A stretch of DNA of 64,000 nt from Anaerolineae bacterium (GCA_034420985.1 DAOUKU010000065.1:99326-163325), one strand, 5' to 3'. Shown: positions 42,852 through 57,967, counted from the first letter of the stretch. The notes: a model not told the origin generated them from the sequence alone. Numbers and translations are program-made.

Positions 42852-45800
42852 TTGAAACACTATTATAATGTGAAGAATTATGCTCGCACGCCCGAGATCC
42901 AGGACCTGCCCTCGCTGATCGACATCCAGCTCAAGTCCTTCGATCACTTCCTGCGCGGCGGCAAGCTGCTGGAGCTCTTCGACGAGATCAACCCCATCAC
43001 CAGCTTCAACGGCAACCTGTCGCTCTACTTCCCCGGCAATGACCCGCAAGCGCAAGAGTTTGGGCTCGAGTTCCGCCTGGACGACCCGAAGTACGACGAA
43101 GACCAGTGCATCGAACGCGATATGTCCTACGCAGCCTCGCTGCACGCTAAAGTCGCCCTGGTCAATCACGAACAGGCGGATGAATTCATCGTGCAGGAGA
43201 TCTTCCTGGGCGAGTTCCCGCTGATGACCGAAAAGGGCACCTTCATCATCAATGGCACCGAGCGAGTCGTCGTCAGCCAGTTGATCCGCTCGCCTGGCGT
43301 CTACTTTGACGGCGAAGAAGAGCGCACTACTGGTCGCTATCTGGCGACTTGCAAGCTGATCCCCGATCGCGGCGCCTGGATGGAGTTCGAGACGCGCAAA
43401 ACCGACTACATCACCTTTAAGTTCAACCGCAAGCGCACCATCCCCGTGACTATCCTGCTGCGGGCATTGGCTGCGGCGGAAGATGGCATGCCCGCCTCGC
43501 GCTCGCCCATCAAAACCGGCGAAGATGACGAAATCCTGGCGCTCTTCAAAGATGTCGATACCGACGAAGCGCATCGCTACATTGAAACCTGCCTCAAACA
43601 AGAACCCGTCTGGGACTTGAAAAAGAAGCAGACGATTGGCGAAGCGGCGCTGATCGAATTCTTCCGCCGCATCCGCCCCGGTGACCCGCCCACGCTGGAC
43701 AATGCCCGCAGCTTCCTGGAGGAGCAGCTCTTCGACAAGCGGCGTTACGACCTGGAGCGCGTCGGGCGCTACAAGCTGAACCGGCGGCTGGGTTTGGAAG
43801 ACACTGTCCCGCGCGAGCATCGCACCTTGACCAAGCATGACATCCTTGAGTTGGTGCGGCACATGGTGGAAATCAACAACCACGCCGACCCGGCGCGCTT
43901 CTTCGACGATATCGATCATCTGGGCAGCCGCCGCGTCAAAACCGTTGGCGAGCTAATCGGCAACAAATTGCGCGTCGGCCTACGGCGCATGGAACGCGTC
44001 GTCCGCGAACGGATGTCCATCCGGGAAGCTGATCAACTGGCGCCCGTGTCGCTAATCAACATCCGCCCGATTGTCGCGGCTGTGCGCGAGTTCTTCGGCT
44101 CGTCGCAGCTTTCGCAATTCATGGAACAGACCAACCCGCTATCGGAGCTGACGCACAAGCGTACGCTGTCGGCGCTGGGTCCCGGTGGCTTGCGGCGCGA
44201 GCGCGCCGGCTTTGATGTGCGCGATGTGCACAGCAGCCACTACGGGCGCATCTGTCCGATCGAAACGCCGGAAGGACCGAATATCGGCTTGATAGGACGC
44301 CTGGCCAGCTACGCGCGTGTCAACGAGCTCGGCTTCATCGAGACCCCCTATCGCAAGGTGATTCACAGCCTGCCGCTGGATGACGAGCGCTTGCTGGGGC
44401 GCGTCCTCTACGATGATGTGGAAGCCAGCCTGTCCCTGCCCAAGGGCGCGTTGATCACCGAGGATATCCTCGCCTTGCTGCGCTATCACGGCCTCAGCCA
44501 GGTCGCGGTGCATGCGCGGGGCGAGCAGGAAGCCGTCCGTGAGTTGGCTGTTGACGAATCGCTGGTGGGCTTGCGCGTTGGCGCAGACATCCGTGTGGGC
44601 GTTGTGCGCAGCCAGTTGACATCGCTGATTGACGCTGTGCGCGACCAACTGGAAAGCCGCGCCTTGAATGAGAATCGTGAAGAATTCGACGCGCTTTACG
44701 GCGAGTTGACTGGCGCAATCATCAGCGCCGCGGATCAACTCTGGGAGAATCGCGACCGCCTGACCCCGCAGCATCTGCATCACTTCGACGAAGTGGTCGG
44801 TCCGCGCGGGGCGGAACTGGAAGGCATTGTCTCCACCTATCTGAACGCGCGCGCCGAACTGCGCAGCGCCATTGACTCGCTGACTGCCGCGCTAGACAAG
44901 CCGTCCAGCCGCCTGGTGGATGTGCCCAAGCGCCTTGACCAACTCTATGACGAAGCTGCCAAATTTGCTGACAAGGTCGCGGACTTCACGCGCATGGCCG
45001 AAAAAGCGCTGAGCGGCGAGCCGCTCACGCCCCGCGAAGTCAACCGCACCATGAAATCCGCCTACAACTGTATCCGTCTCTTCCATGAGAAGATGTCGCG
45101 CGCTGATGAAGCCATTGAACGCGCCAGCAAGCCACTGGACGACTTGCTGAGATCCGATGTCATCACCGAGAGCCGCATGCTCGCGGAAAAGGGCGCCATT
45201 GTCGACGCGGACTTGCTCGAGGCGCTGGCTGAACATGGCATTGTCCAGGCGCCGGTGCTTGTGCTCAGCGATGATGGCGTCTCGGAAGACCTGCCCGTCA
45301 GCGACGCCTTGCTCGGGCGTGTGCTGCATGAACCTGTCGAAAGCGAAACCCTGGTGCTGGACGAGGGTGAGTTGATTGATGAAAGCGCGCTGGAAAAACT
45401 GCGGCTGGCAGGCTTCAGCGAAGCGCCGGTCGCGCCCTTTGCCTCGCGCGAGATCAGCTATCTGTCGGCGGATCAGGAAGACGAATTCACCATCGCGCAA
45501 GCCAACGCCGTGCTGGACGAACGCGACCAGTTTGTATCCAGGCGCGTGTCGGCGCGTCTCAATCAGCAGTTCATGTCGGTGACGCCGCAGCGCATCGAAT
45601 ACATGGATGTCGCTCCGCGCCAGATCGTCGGCATTAGCGCGGCGCTCATCCCCTTCCTGTCGCATGACGCTGCCAACCGCGCCTTGATGGGCTCCAACAT
45701 GCAGCGCCAGGCTGTCCCGCTGATCGCGCCGGATGTCTCGGTGGTCAGCACCGGCATGGAGCGCCAAGCCGCCTCTAGCAGCGGGCAAGTGCTGGTCTCG

Positions 45801-47735
45801 GAAGTGGCCGGCGAGGTCATCAGCGTGCAGGGGCACCGCGTCATTGTGCGCACGGAGTCTGGCAAGGAGGAAGAGTACACGTTGCGTAAGTACGAGCGCT
45901 CCAATCAGTCGACTTGTATCGACCAGCGACCGCAAGTGCGAAAAGGCGATACCATCCAGCCCGGCGACATCATTGCCGACAGCTCCTCGACTTACAACGG
46001 GCATCTGGCGCTGGGGCAGGATGTCTTGACCTGCTTCTTGTCCTGGGATGGCGGCAACTACGAAGATGCCTTGCTGGTCAGCGAAGATTTGCTGCGCAGT
46101 GACAAGTTCACCAGCATTCACATCGAGAAGTACGAGATCGAGGCTCGCGACACCAAGCTCGGCGCGGAAGAAATCACCTACGACATCCCCAATGTCGGCG
46201 AGGAAGCGCTGAAAGACCTCGACCAGGACGGCATCGTGCGTATCGGCGCGGAAGTGGGACCCAACGACATCCTGGTGGGCAAGATCACGCCCAAGGGTGA
46301 AAAAGAACTCTCGCCGGAAGAGAAACTGTTGCGCGCCATCTTTGGCGAACACGCGCGCGAAGTGAAAGACTCGTCATTGCGCCTGCCGCATGGCGATCGC
46401 GGCAAAGTGATCGATGTCAAGGTCTTTAACCGCGATGAGCACCCGGACTTGCCAGCTGGCGTCGAAAAGATGGTGCGCGTTAGTGTGGCGCAGCGCCGCA
46501 AGTTGACCGTCGGCGACAAAATGGCCGGGCGTCACGGCAACAAAGGCGTCATCTCCAAAATCGTTACCGTCGAGGATATGCCCTATATTGACGGCGGCAT
46601 CCCCTGCGAAATCATTCTCAACCCACTGGGCGTGCCGAGCCGCATGAACATCGGGCAGATCCTGGAGCTGCACCTGGGTTGGGCGGCGGATCGTCTGGGA
46701 TTCCGCGCTATCACGCCGGTATTTGACGGCGTCAACGAACTGGAAATCCAGGCGGAGCTGGGCAGAGCCTGGCTGATCGACTGGGCATGGAAACTGACGA
46801 CCGCGCGCGCCTGGGAAAATCAGAAGCGACTGGCTGCCAGCGCTGGCATGAGCGCCGAAGACTTTGACGACGACATGCATGTCATCTGCGCCTACCTGGT
46901 GGATAGCGTCGGCGCGTCGGGGCGCTACGACAACGAGAAGATCATCCTGGAACGCCAGGCAACTTATGTGCGGCGCGTGGCTGTCAGCGAGATCCTGCGC
47001 GAACATGGCTTTGACCCGGACGAGATCATGATCTATGACAATCACGGTTTGTCGACCCAAACGCGCGACCACTGCGATGCCAACGCGCTGGATGTCTCTC
47101 TCCGTCTGTGGATTCAGACAAATGCACCCGAACCCATCGAACTGGATGCGGATCTGAGCGCGCGCGAGCTTTTTGAAGTTGCTGACCGCGTTATGTTCGC
47201 CACCAACGAACCCGTGCCGCATTATGGCAAAATGACCCTCTACGACGGGCGCACCGGCGAGCCATTCGACCGTCCTGTGGCGGTTGGCTATGTGCATATG
47301 CTGAAACTGGCGCATCTGGTCGAAGACAAGGCGCATGCCCGCTCGACTGGTCCCTACAGCCTGGTCACGCAGCAGCCCCTGGGCGGCAAGGCGCAATTTG
47401 GCGGGCAGCGCTTCGGCGAGATGGAAGTCTGGGCGCTGGAGGCTTATGGCGCGGCGCATATCCTGCAGGAGATGCTGACGGTCAAGTCGGACGATGTGCA
47501 GGGGCGTGTCAAGACCTACGAGAGCATCGTCAAGGGCGAACCAATTGAAGAGCCGGGCATCCCTACCAGCTTCCGTGTGCTGGTTAAGGAATTGCAGAGC
47601 TTGGGGCTGTCGGTCGAAGCCATCACCGGCACAGGCGATGTCATCCGCTTCGGCAAATATGATGAGCAGTACCGCAAGCCCCAACCGGAAACGGGGCTGC
47701 TGGGCTTGGGCGCTGCGCGTTCCGCCGAGTTCTAG
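42852..47735 (+). CDS. rpoB: DNA-directed RNA polymerase subunit beta, unusually long (1627 aa)
   Basis: Conserved blocks are present ([117 protein letters not shown]). TTG start 8 nt after AAGGAG. Confidence 0.95.
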
Positions 47736-47807: not shown

Positions 47808-48932
47808 GTGCGTAAGAATCTGGCGACAGCTATCGTTGCTGTCCTGTTGAGCCTGCTGGCGCTGGAGATCGGCTGGCGCTTCTATGTCGCCAACTTCGGC
47901 ACAGAGTATCAAAGAGTGTTCTATTTGTATTCTCGCGCCGAAATCGACGCTCTGGAATCGATCTACCGCCCTTTGCCATTCGTCAATTATGGCTTGTCGC
48001 CGACGCGCGATGACATCAATTCCCTGGGCTATCGCGGACCTGAAATCGCCCAGCCCAAACCCGAAGCCAGCTATCGCATCGCAGCGCTGGGCGGCAGCAC
48101 CACCTACGGAGGCTACTTGGATACTTACGACCTTGCTTGGCCCCACCAGCTTAGACAGACGCTCGCCGCCGATTACGGCTTGAACCATGTTGAGGTCGTC
48201 AACGCTGGCGTGCCTGCCTACACCAGCTTTGAGTCCGCCGTTAATTTCATGCTGCGCGTGCAAGACCTCGACCCGGACATGATCATCATCTACCACGCTG
48301 TCAATGATGTTACGCCGCGCCTGGTTGACCCAGCCTATTACAGCGGCGGCTACGAGGGGCGCGGCACCTGGCGTTACCTGGACGATCCGCTGCCCATCAG
48401 CGCGCTGCAACGCCTGCTCATGCACAAACTGGGGAATACTGTGCCCTTAGCCTACGCGCTGAACGAACAGTTGCCGGCGCCGGAGTCTATTCGCCGCTGC
48501 CAACTGGATACCAGCGGCGAGCAAGCGGTCTGCGCCAACTTGGGCTTGACGGCGGAGCAGGTGCTGGCCGCCAACCCGCCCGTGTATTTCCAGCGCAATC
48601 TCGGCAACATCATCGGCATGGCGCAGCAGCGCGATATCGAGACGCTGCTGCTGACCTGGGCATATTCGCCATATCCATACGATGCGCCCCGCGGCAATGT
48701 CATGACCCATGCCTATCAGCAAGCTGCCGTCGTCGAGCACAACGCCATCATCCGCGAACTCGCCAGCCAACGCGGGGTCATGCTTTATGACATGGCGGCG
48801 ACGCTGCCAATTGACCGCGAATACTGGTACAACGGCGTGCACCAAAGCGCGCAGGGCGCCGCCGAAATGGCGCGGCAACTGGCGGCCTTCCTTGTCGAGA
48901 ATGTAGACGAGCTTGGCGGGCTGCCGGACTAG
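47808..48932 (+). CDS. SGNH/GDSL-type hydrolase family protein with N-terminal membrane anchor
   Basis: N-terminal TM. Block I-like IAALGGSTTYG, block III-like NAGVPAY, and a later YHAVND block. Confidence 0.65.
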   Translation: MRKNLATAIVAVLLSLLALEIGWRFYVANFGTEYQRVFYLYSRAEIDALESIYRPLPFVNYGLSPTRDDINSLGYRGPEIAQPKPEASYRIAALGGSTTYGGYLDTYDLAWPHQLRQTLAADYGLNHVEVVNAGVPAYTSFESAVNFMLRVQDLDPDMIIIYHAVNDVTPRLVDPAYYSGGYEGRGTWRYLDDPLPISALQRLLMHKLGNTVPLAYALNEQLPAPESIRRCQLDTSGEQAVCANLGLTAEQVLAANPPVYFQRNLGNIIGMAQQRDIETLLLTWAYSPYPYDAPRGNVMTHAYQQAAVVEHNAIIRELASQRGVMLYDMAATLPIDREYWYNGVHQSAQGAAEMARQLAAFLVENVDELGGLPD

Positions 48933-49159
48933 TTTCCCGCTTGCGCAAAATGCGCATCGCGCGCCGCGTCCAGCGTGTCATCCACGATGGCCTGCAATTC
49001 AGCTTGCGGATAATGCTGCGGCAGCAGCGCGGAACCGGGACCGCGGGCGGGGAAGCGTTGGTACAGAGCTTTGGCGATGAGGGCATGTCGTTTCCCAGCG
49101 TGAATCGGAGTGGCTAAGAATTGACGCACTTTACCATCTTGCTGCTGTATCCAGTTCAA
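48929..49159 (-). CDS. Hypothetical ORF, possibly a 3' remnant of a disrupted gene
   Basis: TTG start only, and no recognisable domain. It is in frame with the upstream 183-aa ORF across a single TGA. The GC content jumps inside it. Confidence 0.25.
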   Translation of the reverse strand: MNWIQQQDGKVRQFLATPIHAGKRHALIAKALYQRFPARGPGSALLPQHYPQAELQAIVDDTLDAARDAHFAQAGN

Positions 49160-49165
49160 AACAAC

Positions 49166-49717
49166 TCAGCGCAGCTCAATTGAATGCAGTGAAGTTCGGT
49201 CGAATAAGTCATTGGCGTTACTGAACTTCCAGCAAAACAGTTCGCCAACTTGCTGCAAAGAATCTTCGCGCAGCCAATATCCGATTTCGAGAAAGCGAAA
49301 TGCATCAACATCTGTGGGCTGGGTCTGCCACTTTCGTGATTTGCTTGGGATGAGTTCTCTCCAGCGCTGGTCACGAGTGGAATCACTGCGGACGCCGTAC
49401 CATGCTTTTCCTGTAAGGGCTTGCCAAAGAAGGAGTCTTGGCTCACCGATTACAGCGTGATTCCGCATAATGTTGGACAAATGTATGGTTCGTCCCCACA
49501 CCCAGGCTTGCTCCAAAGTGTCAAAGCGCGGCTTGCCATTCTCGCGTTTCGTTATGACCGTCAGCGCGTGCCAAGCCATATCTAGCAGGTCGTCTAGCGC
49601 GCGGTCGAGTTCTTCGGCTTCGGGGCGGAACTCTTCGGCGCTAAGGGCGACTCGTCTGCCAGTGCGGATGCTGTTGCCGAGCGCGCAATCGCGGTCGCTC
49701 CAGACGAGGACGGGCAT
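49166..49717 (-). CDS. Hypothetical protein (183 aa), last gene of the low-GC cassette
   Basis: Its ATG at 49717 shares one nucleotide with the TAA of the upstream gene (TAATG). I recognise no domain. About 45-50% GC. Confidence 0.6.
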   Translation of the reverse strand: MPVLVWSDRDCALGNSIRTGRRVALSAEEFRPEAEELDRALDDLLDMAWHALTVITKRENGKPRFDTLEQAWVWGRTIHLSNIMRNHAVIGEPRLLLWQALTGKAWYGVRSDSTRDQRWRELIPSKSRKWQTQPTDVDAFRFLEIGYWLREDSLQQVGELFCWKFSNANDLFDRTSLHSIELR

Positions 49718-51912
49718 TAGGCAAACTCCTGCGAAAAGATGTCCAGCATGACTGCGACAGTTTCGCGCCATGTCTGGGCAAATTCAATTGGGGATTCCAT
49801 TGCTCCGTTGCCTAGTTTTTCCAGCCGGCGGCGATACGGTTCCCAATTGGGATCATCTGGGCTACCTATGCTATCGAGCAATTGGTCAAAGTTGCTGTCA
49901 CTGCCGTGTTCCTTCGGCCGCAGTGCCCATTCAAGCAAGCCGTTGGCGCTGATCTCGGCGATGAAGGCGTTCTTGCCTTGTAGAGGACTCCGCAGACGCT
50001 GTACATCTGGCAATGCTTTGCGCAGCGGGTAATCTCCTGGATAGGTTAGTTCAGAGAGTTCGATATTCAACTTCCACATCTCTTTCTGTTCGGATTCTTG
50101 CCGAATATCAAATGGCAAGTCGTTCTTCGCGCGGCCAGGATCGCGTTGAAAGTACACTGGCTTACTGTCATGTGCGATTCGGTCTACTTCTTCATTGACA
50201 AGCTCGGCGCGCACACGAAAGATGCCGCTCGACTCAGGCATCTTCAGGCTGGCTGCGTCTGTGACTGGCAAGTGCGATTCCTGTTGCGGATCCAGCAATT
50301 GGCGCTTCACAGTCAAGATGGATTGCGGGGTAGGGGTGTCGCCAGCCGGCGTGCCAGGCAGTACGACCGGCATTTCCCGCGCGAAGACTTCGTCGCAAAA
50401 TGTCGCGTTCAAGTAGACTGTGGCGGCATCGGGCAATCGATTACGCGCCTTGAATTCAATGTGCAAGACCTCGCCATGGTCAATGCGCTGCTTCTTTCCA
50501 TTATCGACATTCACGGCGTTGATAGACAAAGTGATCGGATTCTTGTCTGGTGGAGGGGGTGGCTCGGTCTCTACATAGACAGTCCGTGCCGCGCTTTTCA
50601 CCCGTTCGCCGCGGTGTATAACCACAGCTCGCAGCCGGAATTCACCGGGTACCGGACATTTGATTTGCCGGTCACCGTTGACTTTACCGCGCAGGATATG
50701 CCAGTCCCCAAGTTCAAATTGCTCTTGTATGCGGTCTTTGCTCCACTGCTTGCTGATGGCTGCTTCTTTTCTGAATATTTCGTCCGCGTTGCCAGCTTCA
50801 TCCACCCATTCAAGGATCAAGTCAGCGCTGCCCATGAATTCATCACCTGGTTCGCAGCCCACTTCGACATATACACTTCGGACCGACTGCCCCCAATTTA
50901 CCCGCGCGCTTTTCGGGTCTGGATAATCCAGGTCGAGGCGGAGATCCCAGATAAGCTGCCTGCCATCTGACTCACCTTTGCCTCGTCCAGGCTTGGGTTT
51001 GCGTCCATTTGGATTCAAAAAAGTCTCCAATAATCTCGCATGCGTGTCTTTTTCGCGCTGAGAGACCTGCTGCTGTGAAGTTGAGACAGCTTCCATCCAG
51101 CCCATGTCATGGCTGAAGTCGCGCACTCTTTCTGAAAGCAAATTGCGAATATTACTGATGATCTTCTTCTTGCGGTTGAAGCGATCGTGCTGCGGGTTTT
51201 CAATTTCATGGTGTCGCAGCGCGCTTTCGGTAAATTTGGCAAATTCGACATAGCCACGGAAGCCGGCGCGTTTCTCCGCCGGGATCAGATCTCCATACTC
51301 TTCTTTGGCTCCGTAGGTCTCAATCCACTGTCTGTGGCGCAGTAGCTGAATGCCAGACCATTCAGGTTCCTTCGAGATTTCGTCTTCGGGGATGGTATCG
51401 CTATACAGCAGGACTAAGCGGCGGATTTCGTGCTCATCATCCAATGGCAGGTTGCCCCAGACACACGCGCGGTCGCCATAGGGCATGTCTAGCCAGCTAC
51501 CCTCAGATGAAGGCTTGCTTCTTTCTCGAGGCAAAGACGACCACCAACTCGGTATAGCGATCTCCTCCGCTTCGCCATGCACATCAATGACGCGAATGCG
51601 TACTCTGTTAGTCTGGATAGCTCGCCACCAGCAGCGCTGCAACCAGCGAGAAAGCTCACCTCCTGGGCGCATCGTTGCAACCTGCTTAGCCGGGATAAAG
51701 GGCACAATAATTCGCGTGCCGATTTCGCTCAATGGTTTGATACCGAGAGGCACGGACAGACCGTCGTCCAAGCGGAACTGCTCACTGCGTATCCATTCTC
51801 GCGCCTCATCGTTAAACACAGGCGGCGTCATGACCTGGTCAATCGGCCGCGCAAAACGCATCCCTAAGCGATATTCGCCATCTTCCAGCAAGGTGTCATA
51901 GAGCATCAGCAT
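49717..51912 (-). CDS. Large uncharacterised protein (731 aa), probably the C-terminal continuation of the GHKL ATPase ORF upstream
   Basis: It overlaps the GHKL ORF end by 7 nt in a different frame. The N-terminus (MLMLYDTLLEDGEYRLGMRF) looks like the beta-strands expected after a GHKL G2 box. The C-terminal half is beta-rich. Confidence 0.7.
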   Translation of the reverse strand: MLMLYDTLLEDGEYRLGMRFARPIDQVMTPPVFNDEAREWIRSEQFRLDDGLSVPLGIKPLSEIGTRIIVPFIPAKQVATMRPGGELSRWLQRCWWRAIQTNRVRIRVIDVHGEAEEIAIPSWWSSLPRERSKPSSEGSWLDMPYGDRACVWGNLPLDDEHEIRRLVLLYSDTIPEDEISKEPEWSGIQLLRHRQWIETYGAKEEYGDLIPAEKRAGFRGYVEFAKFTESALRHHEIENPQHDRFNRKKKIISNIRNLLSERVRDFSHDMGWMEAVSTSQQQVSQREKDTHARLLETFLNPNGRKPKPGRGKGESDGRQLIWDLRLDLDYPDPKSARVNWGQSVRSVYVEVGCEPGDEFMGSADLILEWVDEAGNADEIFRKEAAISKQWSKDRIQEQFELGDWHILRGKVNGDRQIKCPVPGEFRLRAVVIHRGERVKSAARTVYVETEPPPPPDKNPITLSINAVNVDNGKKQRIDHGEVLHIEFKARNRLPDAATVYLNATFCDEVFAREMPVVLPGTPAGDTPTPQSILTVKRQLLDPQQESHLPVTDAASLKMPESSGIFRVRAELVNEEVDRIAHDSKPVYFQRDPGRAKNDLPFDIRQESEQKEMWKLNIELSELTYPGDYPLRKALPDVQRLRSPLQGKNAFIAEISANGLLEWALRPKEHGSDSNFDQLLDSIGSPDDPNWEPYRRRLEKLGNGAMESPIEFAQTWRETVAVMLDIFSQEFA

Positions 51913-52355
51913 GCGCCGGGGACATGCGAGTGATAGAGGAATGCCGCCTTACCTTGCCCACGAGAGCCGAGAGCGTCTTCGTTTTCTTTGGTGTAGCCCT
52001 GCGCTTCAAATGCCGCCCAATTCTCTTCAGGCTTCAGCTTGTAGTCCCGTCTCTTCAATTCTTCAACAGTCACCATCGGGCCGCGCAAGCCCGTCGTCCC
52101 AGTATCTGTTACTGTGAGCATATAGCATCCGCTTCCATCGGGCATTCGCCGCCGCAGCAAGCGGTATTCCACCACAACCGTCTGCTGCCCAGCGCGGGCA
52201 GCATCCAGCGCGTTCTGCACAGGTTCTTGCGCCAATGCGCGCAATGCTCCCATTTTGTAGGCTTGGATAGTGTTTTTAATCGTTTGCACCATATCTGTTG
52301 ATGTATTTTCAAACTGCATTGGATCGTTCGCCTTCCCGTTAATTGATCTAGTCAT
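51906..52355 (-). CDS. GHKL (MutL/MORC/Hsp90-type Bergerat-fold) ATPase, N-terminal portion
   Basis: N-box QEPVQNALDA, G1 box VTDTGTTGL, G2 box GSRGQGKAAF. I chose ATG 52355, which overlaps the upstream stop by 8 nt. The track start at 52421 would overlap the upstream gene by 74 nt. Confidence 0.7.
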   Translation of the reverse strand: MTRSINGKANDPMQFENTSTDMVQTIKNTIQAYKMGALRALAQEPVQNALDAARAGQQTVVVEYRLLRRRMPDGSGCYMLTVTDTGTTGLRGPMVTVEELKRRDYKLKPEENWAAFEAQGYTKENEDALGSRGQGKAAFLYHSHVPGAC

Positions 52356-52857
52356 TGCTTGAGTCGTTGGCGTTTCTTCTCCGCCGTTTCGCGCCCACAT
52401 TCCGCGCATTGGGATAATCATCCCGCAGCGCGTAAAATCCCTTGCTGGTCGGGCGTATGAAGCGCTTATCGGCGTCGGCGCGCCCTTTGTCGTCCTGCGT
52501 CATGCGCGATACCAGCCCGCCAGCCGGATCCTTGCCCTTTATCACCGCGCCACGCCGCATCAATTCGTCCGCCAAATCCCGATAGTGCATCGGCTCTGCA
52601 TTTCGCTCGCGCAGTACCGCTTCCGCCATATTGAGGAGTTCACTTGTCGGTGTCGAACCGCTGCGCGATCGCGCGCGCCTGGGTGGCGGCTCGTTGGCGA
52701 CAGTTCCGTTGGAGAGCAAGGCCAGCACATGACGAAGGCGCTGCTCCTTGATATCTAGCTGCTGGCGCAGCAGGTTTATCTCCGTCTGCAAGCGGTCGCG
52801 CTCGTTGAGCAGAGACTGCTGCAGCGCGTCCGCCTCTTTGTCTCCGTTCTCGTTCAT
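52348..52857 (-). CDS. Coiled-coil protein with a C-terminal HARE-HTH-like winged-helix domain
   Basis: N-terminal heptad-rich segment (LLNERDRLQTEINLLRQQLDIKEQRLRHV). C-terminal MAEAVLRERNAEPMHYRDLADELMRRG...RFIRPTSKGFYALRD. I chose ATG 52857 because the -10 box of the best promoter lies downstream of the track start at 52905. Confidence 0.6.
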   Translation of the reverse strand: MNENGDKEADALQQSLLNERDRLQTEINLLRQQLDIKEQRLRHVLALLSNGTVANEPPPRRARSRSGSTPTSELLNMAEAVLRERNAEPMHYRDLADELMRRGAVIKGKDPAGGLVSRMTQDDKGRADADKRFIRPTSKGFYALRDDYPNARNVGAKRRRRNANDSSND

Positions 52858-52895
52858 CCACTTTTGCCCGCCCACCAGCTTATCTGTATACGCGT

Positions 52896-52924
52896 AATAT
52901 AGCATTCTAGTCTAGAAATGTCAA
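52896..52924 (-). promoter_or_regulatory. Near-consensus sigma-70 promoter of the low-GC cassette (TTGACA-17 nt-TATATT) with a palindrome in the spacer
   Basis: On the minus strand, TTGACA at 52924..52919 and TATATT at 52901..52896. The spacer contains the perfect palindrome TTCTAGACTAGAA. Confidence 0.6.
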
Positions 52925-52994
52925 TACTGTATATTTACCATTATCTAGCTTGTCATGCTCGCCTGCCGCTTCCCAAAACCGCGCGTAATGTTGC

Positions 52995-57616: not shown

Positions 57617-57967
57617 GTGAGTGTCCTTTCTTTGCCAAGAAACCTGCTTGGCGCGCTCTTCGGCTCGTCTCTGGCGCGCGAACGTGACTTTTTCGCTCGT
57701 CACCACGAGCTAAGCGACCAGATCGCCGCGGCGCCAGAGGGCATGATTCCGCGTGTTTTGCGTGGCGAGCTGCTGCTGGAGCGGCGGGATTATGCGCTGG
57801 CGGGGGCGGATTTTGAGGCGGCGCTGGACTTGACGGGAAGGCTGGACATGCGCGCAGGCTGGCTGCTGCAAGAACAAGTCATGCGCGACCGCGCGCTCTT
57901 TGGACTGGAAATTGTGGCCCGCCACTTGCCCCCTGCGAGTGAGCCGGCGGCAAATGTGGAGGCATAG
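57617..57967 (+). CDS. Hypothetical 116-aa protein inserted between nuoF and nuoG (weak TPR-like helix pair)
   Basis: GTG start 3 nt after the nuoF stop. Its TAG stop directly abuts the nuoG ATG. Codon usage is coding-like. The segment RGELLLERRDYALAGADFEAALDL is TPR-like. Confidence 0.5.
   Translation: MSVLSLPRNLLGALFGSSLARERDFFARHHELSDQIAAAPEGMIPRVLRGELLLERRDYALAGADFEAALDLTGRLDMRAGWLLQEQVMRDRALFGLEIVARHLPPASEPAANVEA

Follow-up and report, generated by a model that had tools for sequence, protein, structure and literature searches.

We have analysed a stretch of 64,000 nucleotides (nt) from an Anaerolineae bacterium (GCA_034420985.1 DAOUKU010000065.1:99326-163325; hereafter the window), in which a cassette of three genes lies on the minus strand between a gene for an SGNH/GDSL hydrolase and the start of the nuo operon. 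The trio encodes a HARE-HTH protein (gene 1), a large predicted GHKL ATPase (gene 2) and a third protein of no known fold (gene 3, or p3). At a locus that is fixed among related genomes, whole ATPase genes have been exchanged as cassettes. On the evidence of genomic context and evolutionary pattern, the balance of probability leans slightly towards the intact trio being a DNA-directed conflict or defence system: it occurs in defence islands, its ATPase alleles are swapped, and it decays recurrently. A first-pass annotation of the window had already proposed a conflict or defence module, and these three features speak for that proposal; the copy in the window, however, is dead, being, as judged from its reading frames, a pseudogenised relic with two of its three genes disrupted. 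The parts of the cassette are as follows, in coordinates of the window:

48929..52924, minus strand: the three-gene cassette, from promoter to p3 tail
52896..52924, minus strand: predicted sigma-70-type promoter, TTGACA-N17-TATATT with an extended -10 TG, 11/12 consensus positions
52348..52857, minus strand: gene 1, HARE-HTH protein of 169 amino acids (aa), from Pfam PF05066 and the alignment of homologues
51906..52355, minus strand: gene 2, 5' fragment, first 149 codons with motifs I-III, ending in a premature TGA at 51906..51908
51917..51920, minus strand: 10-bp deletion in the ATPase gene, junction 51919/51918, from blastn against loci L007, L008 and L009
49717..51912, minus strand: gene 2, 3' fragment, open reading frame (ORF) of 731 aa with motif IV and the transducer/S5-like, Ig-like and helical domains
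49166..49717, minus strand: gene 3 (p3), front, 183 codons, closed by an in-frame TGA at 49166..49168 where homologues have R, Q or K
48929..49165, minus strand: gene 3 (p3), severed tail, 78 codons, in which FPARGPGSALLPQHYP...LDAARDAHF is still conserved

The exchange is seen most directly in loci L011 and L049, whose genomes are nearly identical. The DNA of the two is 96.6% identical until 33 nt before the stop codon of the HARE gene, and identity resumes, at 95.4%, 13 nt ahead of the ATPase stop codon; between these points the ATPase ORFs (L011:5939-8594 and L049:5874-8504) have no detectable DNA similarity, and the proteins that they encode are 32% identical over their full length. The breakpoints thus fall only a few codons from the ends of the ATPase gene. 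The same pattern recurs in the pairs L016/L052 and L018/L062, with flanks that are 80-90% identical in DNA. The type B allele of the ATPase is the deepest branch of the family, farther from the type found in the window than the versions carried by Dehalococcoidia, and across the clade ATPase identity is uncorrelated with the identity of either NuoD or p3 (Spearman ~0). When types A and B are compared, conservation is highest in the ATPase core and the C-terminal helical domain and lowest in the start of the transducer, the linker and the Ig-like domains. Whatever the function of the trio, a gene-precise swap to a 32%-identical allele within ~96%-identical flanks is a clean natural case of cassette exchange, and one that can be traced in the many sponge- and coral-associated Chloroflexota genomes now available. 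Wholesale replacement of this kind is not easily squared with housekeeping machinery whose parts are co-adapted. It therefore counts against what we regard as the main rival to a defence role, namely that the trio is a housekeeping chromatin or DNA-topology factor, in which a clamp similar to MORC or Topo VI-B is recruited by the HARE-HTH protein to organise or compact the nucleoid, or to aid transcription; we consider this rather unlikely.

The frequency of decay and the base composition of the trio were assessed on loci from a survey of one genome per species (185,579 species genomes), a scan limited by its search patterns, which yielded 56 species loci. About 12 of the 56 have an ATPase gene that is split or interrupted, has lost an internal part or survives as a stub, Illumina assemblies being among them, and the window copy is a further case beyond these. 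The GC content of the trio stays at 0.52-0.59 while that of the hosts ranges over 0.53-0.68, and it is below that of the flanks in 47 of 52 loci. A module that is dispensable, dead in the window and decayed in about a fifth of the species loci, with a composition that is non-native throughout, is not what one would expect of a chromatin factor; neither is its rarity, with 339 ninety-percent clusters in the family among 5.8 billion and the 56 loci of the pattern-limited scan. Non-native GC, exchange of the ATPase cassette, frequent decay and the defence and mobile-element contexts described below together argue against an ordinary core gene set. As a separate observation, the ATPase gene of the dehalococcoidian locus L051:6966-11081 is interrupted by an insert of ~4 kb between profile positions 323 and 348. 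Also in Dehalococcoidia, OZ243977.1 (L032, L044) and OY730475.1 (L026, L046) each have two ATPase copies at separate loci; in one of these four, L046, both the ATPase and p3 are split.

Outside the syntenic clades the trio is often found in contexts rich in defence or mobile-element genes. To one side of L065, for example, lie a Type ISP restriction-modification (R-M) system and GmrSD, and to its other side a Type I R-M system, ThsB-TIR and AbiE; two Gp49/HTH pairs flank L063, and L068 is surrounded by insertion sequence (IS) elements, PIN, a Cas3-like protein and ParE. We counted matches for the two nearest genes on each side at 36 non-syntenic loci, taking as an equally large control 133 genes upstream of nuoA at 42 unrelated loci. 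The neighbours of the trio matched 259 PADLOC families, among them DndB and R-M of Types I and IIG, versus 20 for the control genes, all of them generic ATPase-type families with no R-M or Dnd among them.

Toxin-antitoxin and IS neighbours at some loci, together with the low GC everywhere, would also suit a selfish or addiction module, or its remnant, which persists by post-segregational killing or by exclusion of rival elements, the ATPase/p3 pair being its toxin and the HARE-HTH protein its repressor or antidote. Two further features fit such a module: inactivation often strikes the large genes and spares the HARE gene, in the window as elsewhere, and a strong promoter stands right before the gene of a small DNA-binding protein, as in autoregulated operons of toxin-antitoxin type. 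We nonetheless judge it clearly unlikely, since neither integrase nor transposase, tRNA nor flanking repeats were found at the window locus, searches of plasmids and phages were negative, and three large co-conserved genes would be of unusual size for it; its boundary with abortive-infection defence is in part a matter of definition.

Several observations weigh against a defence role. The arrangement nuoA, trio, (SGNH) and rpoB is common to ~20 species of the clade to which the window belongs, and two further clades have fixed neighbourhoods of their own, one with PMT_2/AhpC and one with a H+-PPase; such neighbourhoods look like the vertical inheritance of a resident gene set. The trio diverges by 55-74%, similar to the 50-72% of the neighbouring SGNH gene, and no relatives of it were found in plasmids and viral contigs. 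Searches of the three proteins revealed neither a nuclease, helicase, methylase or TIR domain nor any other known effector. The enrichment among neighbours is a crude count of PADLOC families against a single control, and some of the split genes in metagenome-assembled genomes (MAGs) from long reads may be assembly errors. Part of this can be read as favouring the chromatin factor: the nuoA-rpoB position is fixed in ~20 species, other clade-specific fixed loci lie near dnaA and AhpC, plasmid and virus searches gave no copies, and an effector domain is not found in the trio proteins. The RNA polymerase delta subunit, moreover, has the HARE-HTH fold, and there is a weak match to it (TIGR04567, E 0.02); the locus also adjoins rpoB. 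That adjacency, however, is lost beyond one clade. The first-pass annotation had named as grounds for rejecting its proposal that the genes be conserved core genes next to nuo with native composition; they are indeed adjacent to nuo in ~20 relatives, but their composition is always non-native.

The sharing of the nuoA/rpoB locus by ~20 related species means that low GC is here no mark of recent insertion. A recent horizontal insertion at the window site was considered and ruled out by those species and by the lack of a tRNA, integrase or flanking repeat. A scan of metagenome contigs seeded with nuoA found rpoB or the trio adjoining nuoA in 0 of 80 loci, and is uninformative on empty sites.

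All 56 species loci are from Chloroflexota except one, from a MAG labelled Actinomycetes. The Chloroflexota carriers belong to Aggregatilineales/Phototrophicaceae/Anaerolineae and to Dehalococcoidia, and many of them we take, from their isolate codes, to be sponge- or coral-associated MAGs. Hidden Markov models of gene 1 and p3 place one partner on either side of the ATPase gene in 52 of the 56 loci, and order and orientation are the same in all of these. Intact copies include L008 in JAPOSR010000039.1, whose ATPase is 73% identical to that of the window, and L065 in OZ244885.1. A subclade of Dehalococcoidia (L031, L036, L037, L041, L048, L057) has the trio in another fixed context: a gene for a membrane H+-pyrophosphatase lies upstream in L031, L036, L048 and L057, and a conserved protein of 211-241 aa is encoded downstream in L031, L037, L041 and L048, followed in these four by nuoB ~1-2 kb further on.

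The two ATPase ORFs of the window are parts of one gene, because in a search with both fused the full-length homologues cover 98% of the query; joined, they amount to ~880 aa, versus ~870 aa for full-length homologues. The motifs EPVQNALDA, DTGTTG and GSRGQGK are present in the window, and across 45 homologues these three and GTRIIVPF (motifs I-IV) vary little or not at all; the GHKL motifs are also kept in the type B alleles and in a sister family described below. Pfam HATPase_c reaches the protein with an E of only 0.07, and no Pfam, NCBIfam or PHROGs family matches it; its profile finds nothing below E 0.3 among the sequences of the PDB. The structure was approached through an AlphaFold2 model of P0003, a homologue 73% identical to the window ATPase (predicted local distance difference test, pLDDT, 82), which was compared by Foldseek. 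The best match is Topo VI-B (E 4.5e-8, 500-530 columns over GHKL and transducer), followed by GyrB/ParE (~450 columns). The middle region resembles Ig-like sandwiches, namely RbmA, the C-terminal barrels of transglutaminases and arrestin/Vps26, and the last ~90 residues are modelled as a helical bundle. In the 3' fragment, WW and ExxxH motifs occur in the transducer/S5-like domain, and Ig-like domains are predicted on both sides of a PPPPP linker; the ExxxH (E..QH) is invariant and directly follows the S5-like sheet.

Motifs I-IV and the fold matched by Foldseek make the ATPase a member of the GHKL (Bergerat-fold) superfamily, as had been recognised from NALDA, DTGTTG and GSRGQGK in the first reading of the sequence, and the modelled transducer/S5-like domain after the GHKL domain places it in the GHL subgroup. 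The MORC/MutL flavour then ascribed to it was not borne out: HATPase_c_3 gave 0 matches for the window fragments and the 45 homologues at E up to 0.1, Pfam has no MutL or HSP90 match in the ATPase, and no Hsp90 is among the top 50 structural matches, so that by neither profile nor structure is it a bona fide HtpG or MutL. The more than 700 aa following the ATPase motifs, described earlier as free of recognisable motifs, do lack any nuclease, helicase or methylase, but they resolve in the model into transducer, Ig-like and helical C-terminal domains.

The closest parallels in the literature are the MORC and paraMORC GHKL ATPases described in operons of R-M type (Iyer, Abhiman and Aravind 2008, PMC2292703). 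As in these, the trio ATPase begins with a GHKL domain in which the ATP motifs are intact, and an S5/transducer domain comes next; the trio is sporadic in distribution with contexts of conflict type, and the action that may be proposed for it is ATP-driven clamping or looping of DNA. An ExxxH in the C-terminal part of the S5 domain is the hallmark of paraMORC2 (PMC2292703), and the likeness of the trio ATPase, with its ExxxH just past the S5 domain, is to that published motif description alone. The differences from MORC are the missing match to Pfam HATPase_c_3/MORC and a long C-terminal half with Ig-like and helical domains; unlike the R-M operons, the conserved trio has no superfamily II helicase, endonuclease or methylase, its partners being the HARE-HTH protein and p3, with R-M genes nearby in some loci only. 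The first ~450 residues are similar to Topo VI-B (template-modelling score, normalised to the target, 0.41-0.49), but sequence identity to Topo VI is ~10% with no match at sequence level in the PDB, and the topoisomerases do not have the C-terminal Ig-like and helical domains. Neither Toprim, 5Y-CAP nor Topo VI-A was found in the trio genes by Pfam, PDB profile or Foldseek, and there is thus no A subunit. From MutL the ATPase differs in its C-terminal half, which is modelled as Ig-like sandwiches and a helical bundle; neither Pfam nor the PDB sequences gave a match to the C-terminal dimerisation/endonuclease domain of MutL or to DNA_mis_repair.

VcSduA, a Shedu protein with a GHKL N-domain (PMC12137116), resembles the trio: for it, too, immunity directed at DNA has been proposed to be under the control of a GHKL ATPase whose middle domain is clamp-like; in contrast to VcSduA, the trio has no DUF4263/PD-(D/E)xK or other nuclease and consists of three genes rather than one. 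The only model in a defence database that touches the ATPase is PDC-M33A, protein A of the PADLOC candidate system PDC-M33, which matches the N-terminal ~60 residues (the motif I region) of 32 among 45 members, at profile positions ~7-64 of 627 (~10%) and with a best E of 1.4e-6. This weak relationship speaks in favour of a conflict role. Gene 1 and p3 have no PADLOC match, and therefore no match to a PDC-M33 partner, and a literature search returned nothing on PDC-M33 and nothing describing an operon of HARE-HTH and GHKL genes. Both recognisable domains are thus precedented in conflict systems, while the architecture of the trio, the ATPase family and p3 are undescribed in the libraries and literature searched. 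The first-pass annotation could match the architecture to no named system, and this stands: Pfam, NCBIfam, PHROGs and the profiles of PADLOC cover neither the ATPase as a whole nor p3.

Gene 1 appears from its reading frame to be intact in the window. Pfam PF05066 matches it with E 6.5e-9 (36.5 bits versus a gathering cut-off of 25.9) at residues 92-152 of an ORF of 185 aa, and the HARE-HTH domain is likewise annotated on its homologues; the coiled coil and the HARE-HTH C-terminus reported earlier are thereby upheld, the protein having a heptad-rich N-terminus predicted as coiled coil, the HARE-HTH winged helix at the C-terminus and a basic RRRR tail. The ORF of 185 aa, as derived mechanically, opens at an ATG at 52905, inside the promoter, and the homologues begin at the equivalent of MNENGDK; for these reasons we place the true start at the ATG at 52857. 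Invariant in the alignment of homologues are HYR..DE, GFYALR and DYP.ARNVG.

The promoter, whose strength had been noted from the sequence and agrees with its 11/12 consensus match, is not peculiar to the window: in most of 52 homologous loci, a promoter with at least 10/12 consensus positions is found 35-120 nt upstream of the HARE gene. Its spacer between -35 and -10 holds a perfect palindrome of 11 nt, TCTAGACTAGA, at ~52906..52916 (minus strand), which could be an operator, and several relatives have the related strings TAGTATAG or CTATTATAG at the same position in the spacer.

Passing the PF05066 gathering score puts gene 1 in the company of the RNA polymerase delta subunit, ASXL and fusions to restriction endonucleases. 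In prokaryotic conflict systems HARE-HTH has been proposed to read the modification state of DNA (PMC10853773). In contrast to those named above, gene 1 stands alone, with a coiled-coil N-terminus and a basic tail and no fusion to a nuclease. The tail of the RNA polymerase delta subunit is acidic, unlike that of gene 1.

The presence of a small DNA-binding protein encoded beside the ATPase and behind a strong promoter, in a superfamily that includes kinases, might also suggest a signalling pair, in which the GHKL protein would be a kinase that phosphorylates the HARE-HTH repressor and so controls neighbouring genes, similar to the kinase-repressor pair CapK/CapS (PMC13373217). We hold this to be highly unlikely. 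The ATPase has a transducer/S5 domain and the shape of Topo VI-B/GyrB rather than the compact form of the anti-sigma kinases, and STAS and histidine-kinase dimerisation domains were not found; moreover, the neighbours differ among clades, which means that there is no conserved downstream operon to control. A pair of CapK/CapS type was accordingly set aside on domain architecture.

The third protein is ~260 aa at full length. Its homologues, only 118 in number and all unnamed, are of the same length throughout (245-270 aa). The predicted fold is confident (pLDDT 84, predicted template-modelling score 0.79), and Foldseek finds no structural relative of it in the PDB or BFVD (best E 0.8-0.9); there is no match in Pfam, NCBIfam or PHROGs, and the p3 profile finds nothing below E 0.3 among PDB sequences. 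The protein of 183 aa and no recognisable domain described earlier has indeed no known fold, but it is only the front of p3, cut by the TGA. In every locus inspected the stop codon of the ATPase gene overlaps the start codon of p3 by 1 nt, which indicates translational coupling. The severed tail of p3 shares its final 4 nt with the end of the SGNH gene, which is convergent.

The lesions of the window copy can be described precisely. While the frame change in the ATPase gene had been recognised as a lesion, it is a 10-bp deletion and not a slip of a single base: comparison with L007, L008 and L009, which are intact or near-intact relatives, shows the loss of the G-x-T codons and one base just past the G2 box, with a frameshift as the result, at a site where every homologue has HSHVPGxTRRM in the protein alignment. 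A run of C leaves the junction with an uncertainty of 1-2 nt. The nonsense codon in p3, which had been missed, is a TGA in place of the CGA of L009, the closest homologue; others have R, Q or K. Both lesions are found in the ENA scaffold from which the window comes, scaffold_9 of NGUY21-1_SAMN17524320 with 443,914 bp, and in the independent Logan assembly of SRR13587051. The severed parts of the ATPase and p3 are still well conserved, from which we take the lesions to be recent. The same conservation could be read as a sign that the genes work as they stand, by a programmed -1 frameshift in the ATPase and read-through of the TGA in p3, or that the lesions are sequencing errors. This is hardly credible: each intact homologue is encoded in one ORF, what shifts the frame is the loss of 10 bp with conserved codons and not a slippery site, the p3 stop is a plain change of CGA to TGA, and both lesions are present again in the second assembly. 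Programmed frameshifting and sequencing error were thus rejected on the deletion and on the second assembly, and the window copy should carry a pseudogene annotation.

One strong promoter drives the genes for HARE-HTH, ATPase and p3. If the intact trio is a defence system, its action might be imagined as follows. A dimeric HARE-HTH subunit would bind DNA, possibly telling modified from unmodified, and could also repress the strong promoter of its own operon. The GHKL/transducer subunit would dimerise upon binding ATP, as do Topo VI-B, MutL and MORC, and clamp or loop the bound DNA, with its variable Ig-like domains setting specificity; p3, made in fixed ratio through translational coupling, would be the adaptor or effector. 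In the lineage of the window the cassette is an old resident of the nuoA/rpoB locus, varied by replacement of the ATPase and often decayed, as here. We put forward tentatively, as a quite possible reading of more specific content, that the trio is a new immune system made of a stand-alone clamp similar to Topo VI-B/paraMORC, a HARE-HTH reader of DNA (modification) and an effector of unseen fold, with the ATPase gene as an exchangeable specificity cassette at a fixed locus in symbiont Chloroflexota, and with a two-gene sister family that reaches Proteobacteria-like genomes and haloarchaea. If this immune system were real, it would be a family in which no catalogued type of nuclease, helicase or NTPase serves as effector; p3, confidently folded and without a structural relative, would gain a function to be discovered; clamp and HARE-HTH reader would form a bacterial counterpart of the MORC-type silencing of foreign DNA in eukaryotes; and there would be an experimental handle on the targeting of GHKL clamps.

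The sister family came from an exhaustive profile search that gave 408 clusters and includes proteins of 650-720 aa, which match the GHKL domain, the transducer and the first Ig-like region and have no match in Pfam or PADLOC. One member, of 668 aa (WP_420182101.1), is from Haloarcula sp. KBTZ06. At L152:6585-9316 a two-gene module encodes a GHKL protein of 679 aa and a partner of 230 aa, with stop and start overlapping by 1 base; its neighbours are a UPF0093 (PF03653) gene on one side and rho on the other, its GC is 0.46 versus 0.58 in the flanks, and no HARE-HTH gene adjoins it. Between p3 and the 230-aa partner there is just one short motif in common (hhalign probability 1%).

The genes that border the cassette in the window are:

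42852..47735, plus strand: rpoB, 1627 aa
47808..48932, plus strand: SGNH/GDSL hydrolase gene, flanking the cassette on the rpoB side and convergent with p3
from ~53014, plus strand: nuoA, start of the nuo operon, on the other flank of the cassette

Between the SGNH gene and nuoA, the minus strand has four chained ORFs, all in that orientation, and their junctions are as described in the first-pass annotation: 8 nt (ATGACTAG) are shared at 52348..52355, the frame changes at 51906..51912, and TAATG stands at 49715..49719. The cassette itself, placed there at 49130-52941, is real but larger at the p3 end, extending ~200 nt past the reported start because the conserved tail of p3 continues to 48929; its true span is 48929..52924. 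GC in the 60 nt at 49201..49260, when recomputed, is again 45%, and the drop in composition is confirmed, although the adjoining genes are at 58-63% rather than the 60-65% first given. Overall the cassette has a GC of 54.3% versus 60.5% for the rest of the window, and is the lowest stretch in the 64 kb. GC at third codon positions is 0.57-0.59 in the ATPase and p3 genes versus 0.73-0.77 in rpoB, SGNH and nuoA; that of the HARE gene (0.715) is near-native. An Rfam scan of the whole window gave 0 matches, and the window is also free of tRNA genes.

Some minor observations concern the neighbouring genes. The 1627 aa of rpoB in the window and in several relatives, versus 1317 aa in L004, imply a lineage-specific insertion of ~300 aa, and the C-terminal third of rpoB is only 52-67% identical among genomes in which NuoB is 95-99% identical. 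Syntenic relatives differ in whether they carry the SGNH gene between rpoB and the trio (window versus L004, L010, L011, L015 and L016), so that the rpoB-nuoA interval is variable beyond the trio itself. Finally, an ORF of 105-116 aa with no Pfam match lies between nuoF and nuoG (~57617..57967, plus strand, in the window; L151:11194-11544) and is kept in all syntenic relatives.

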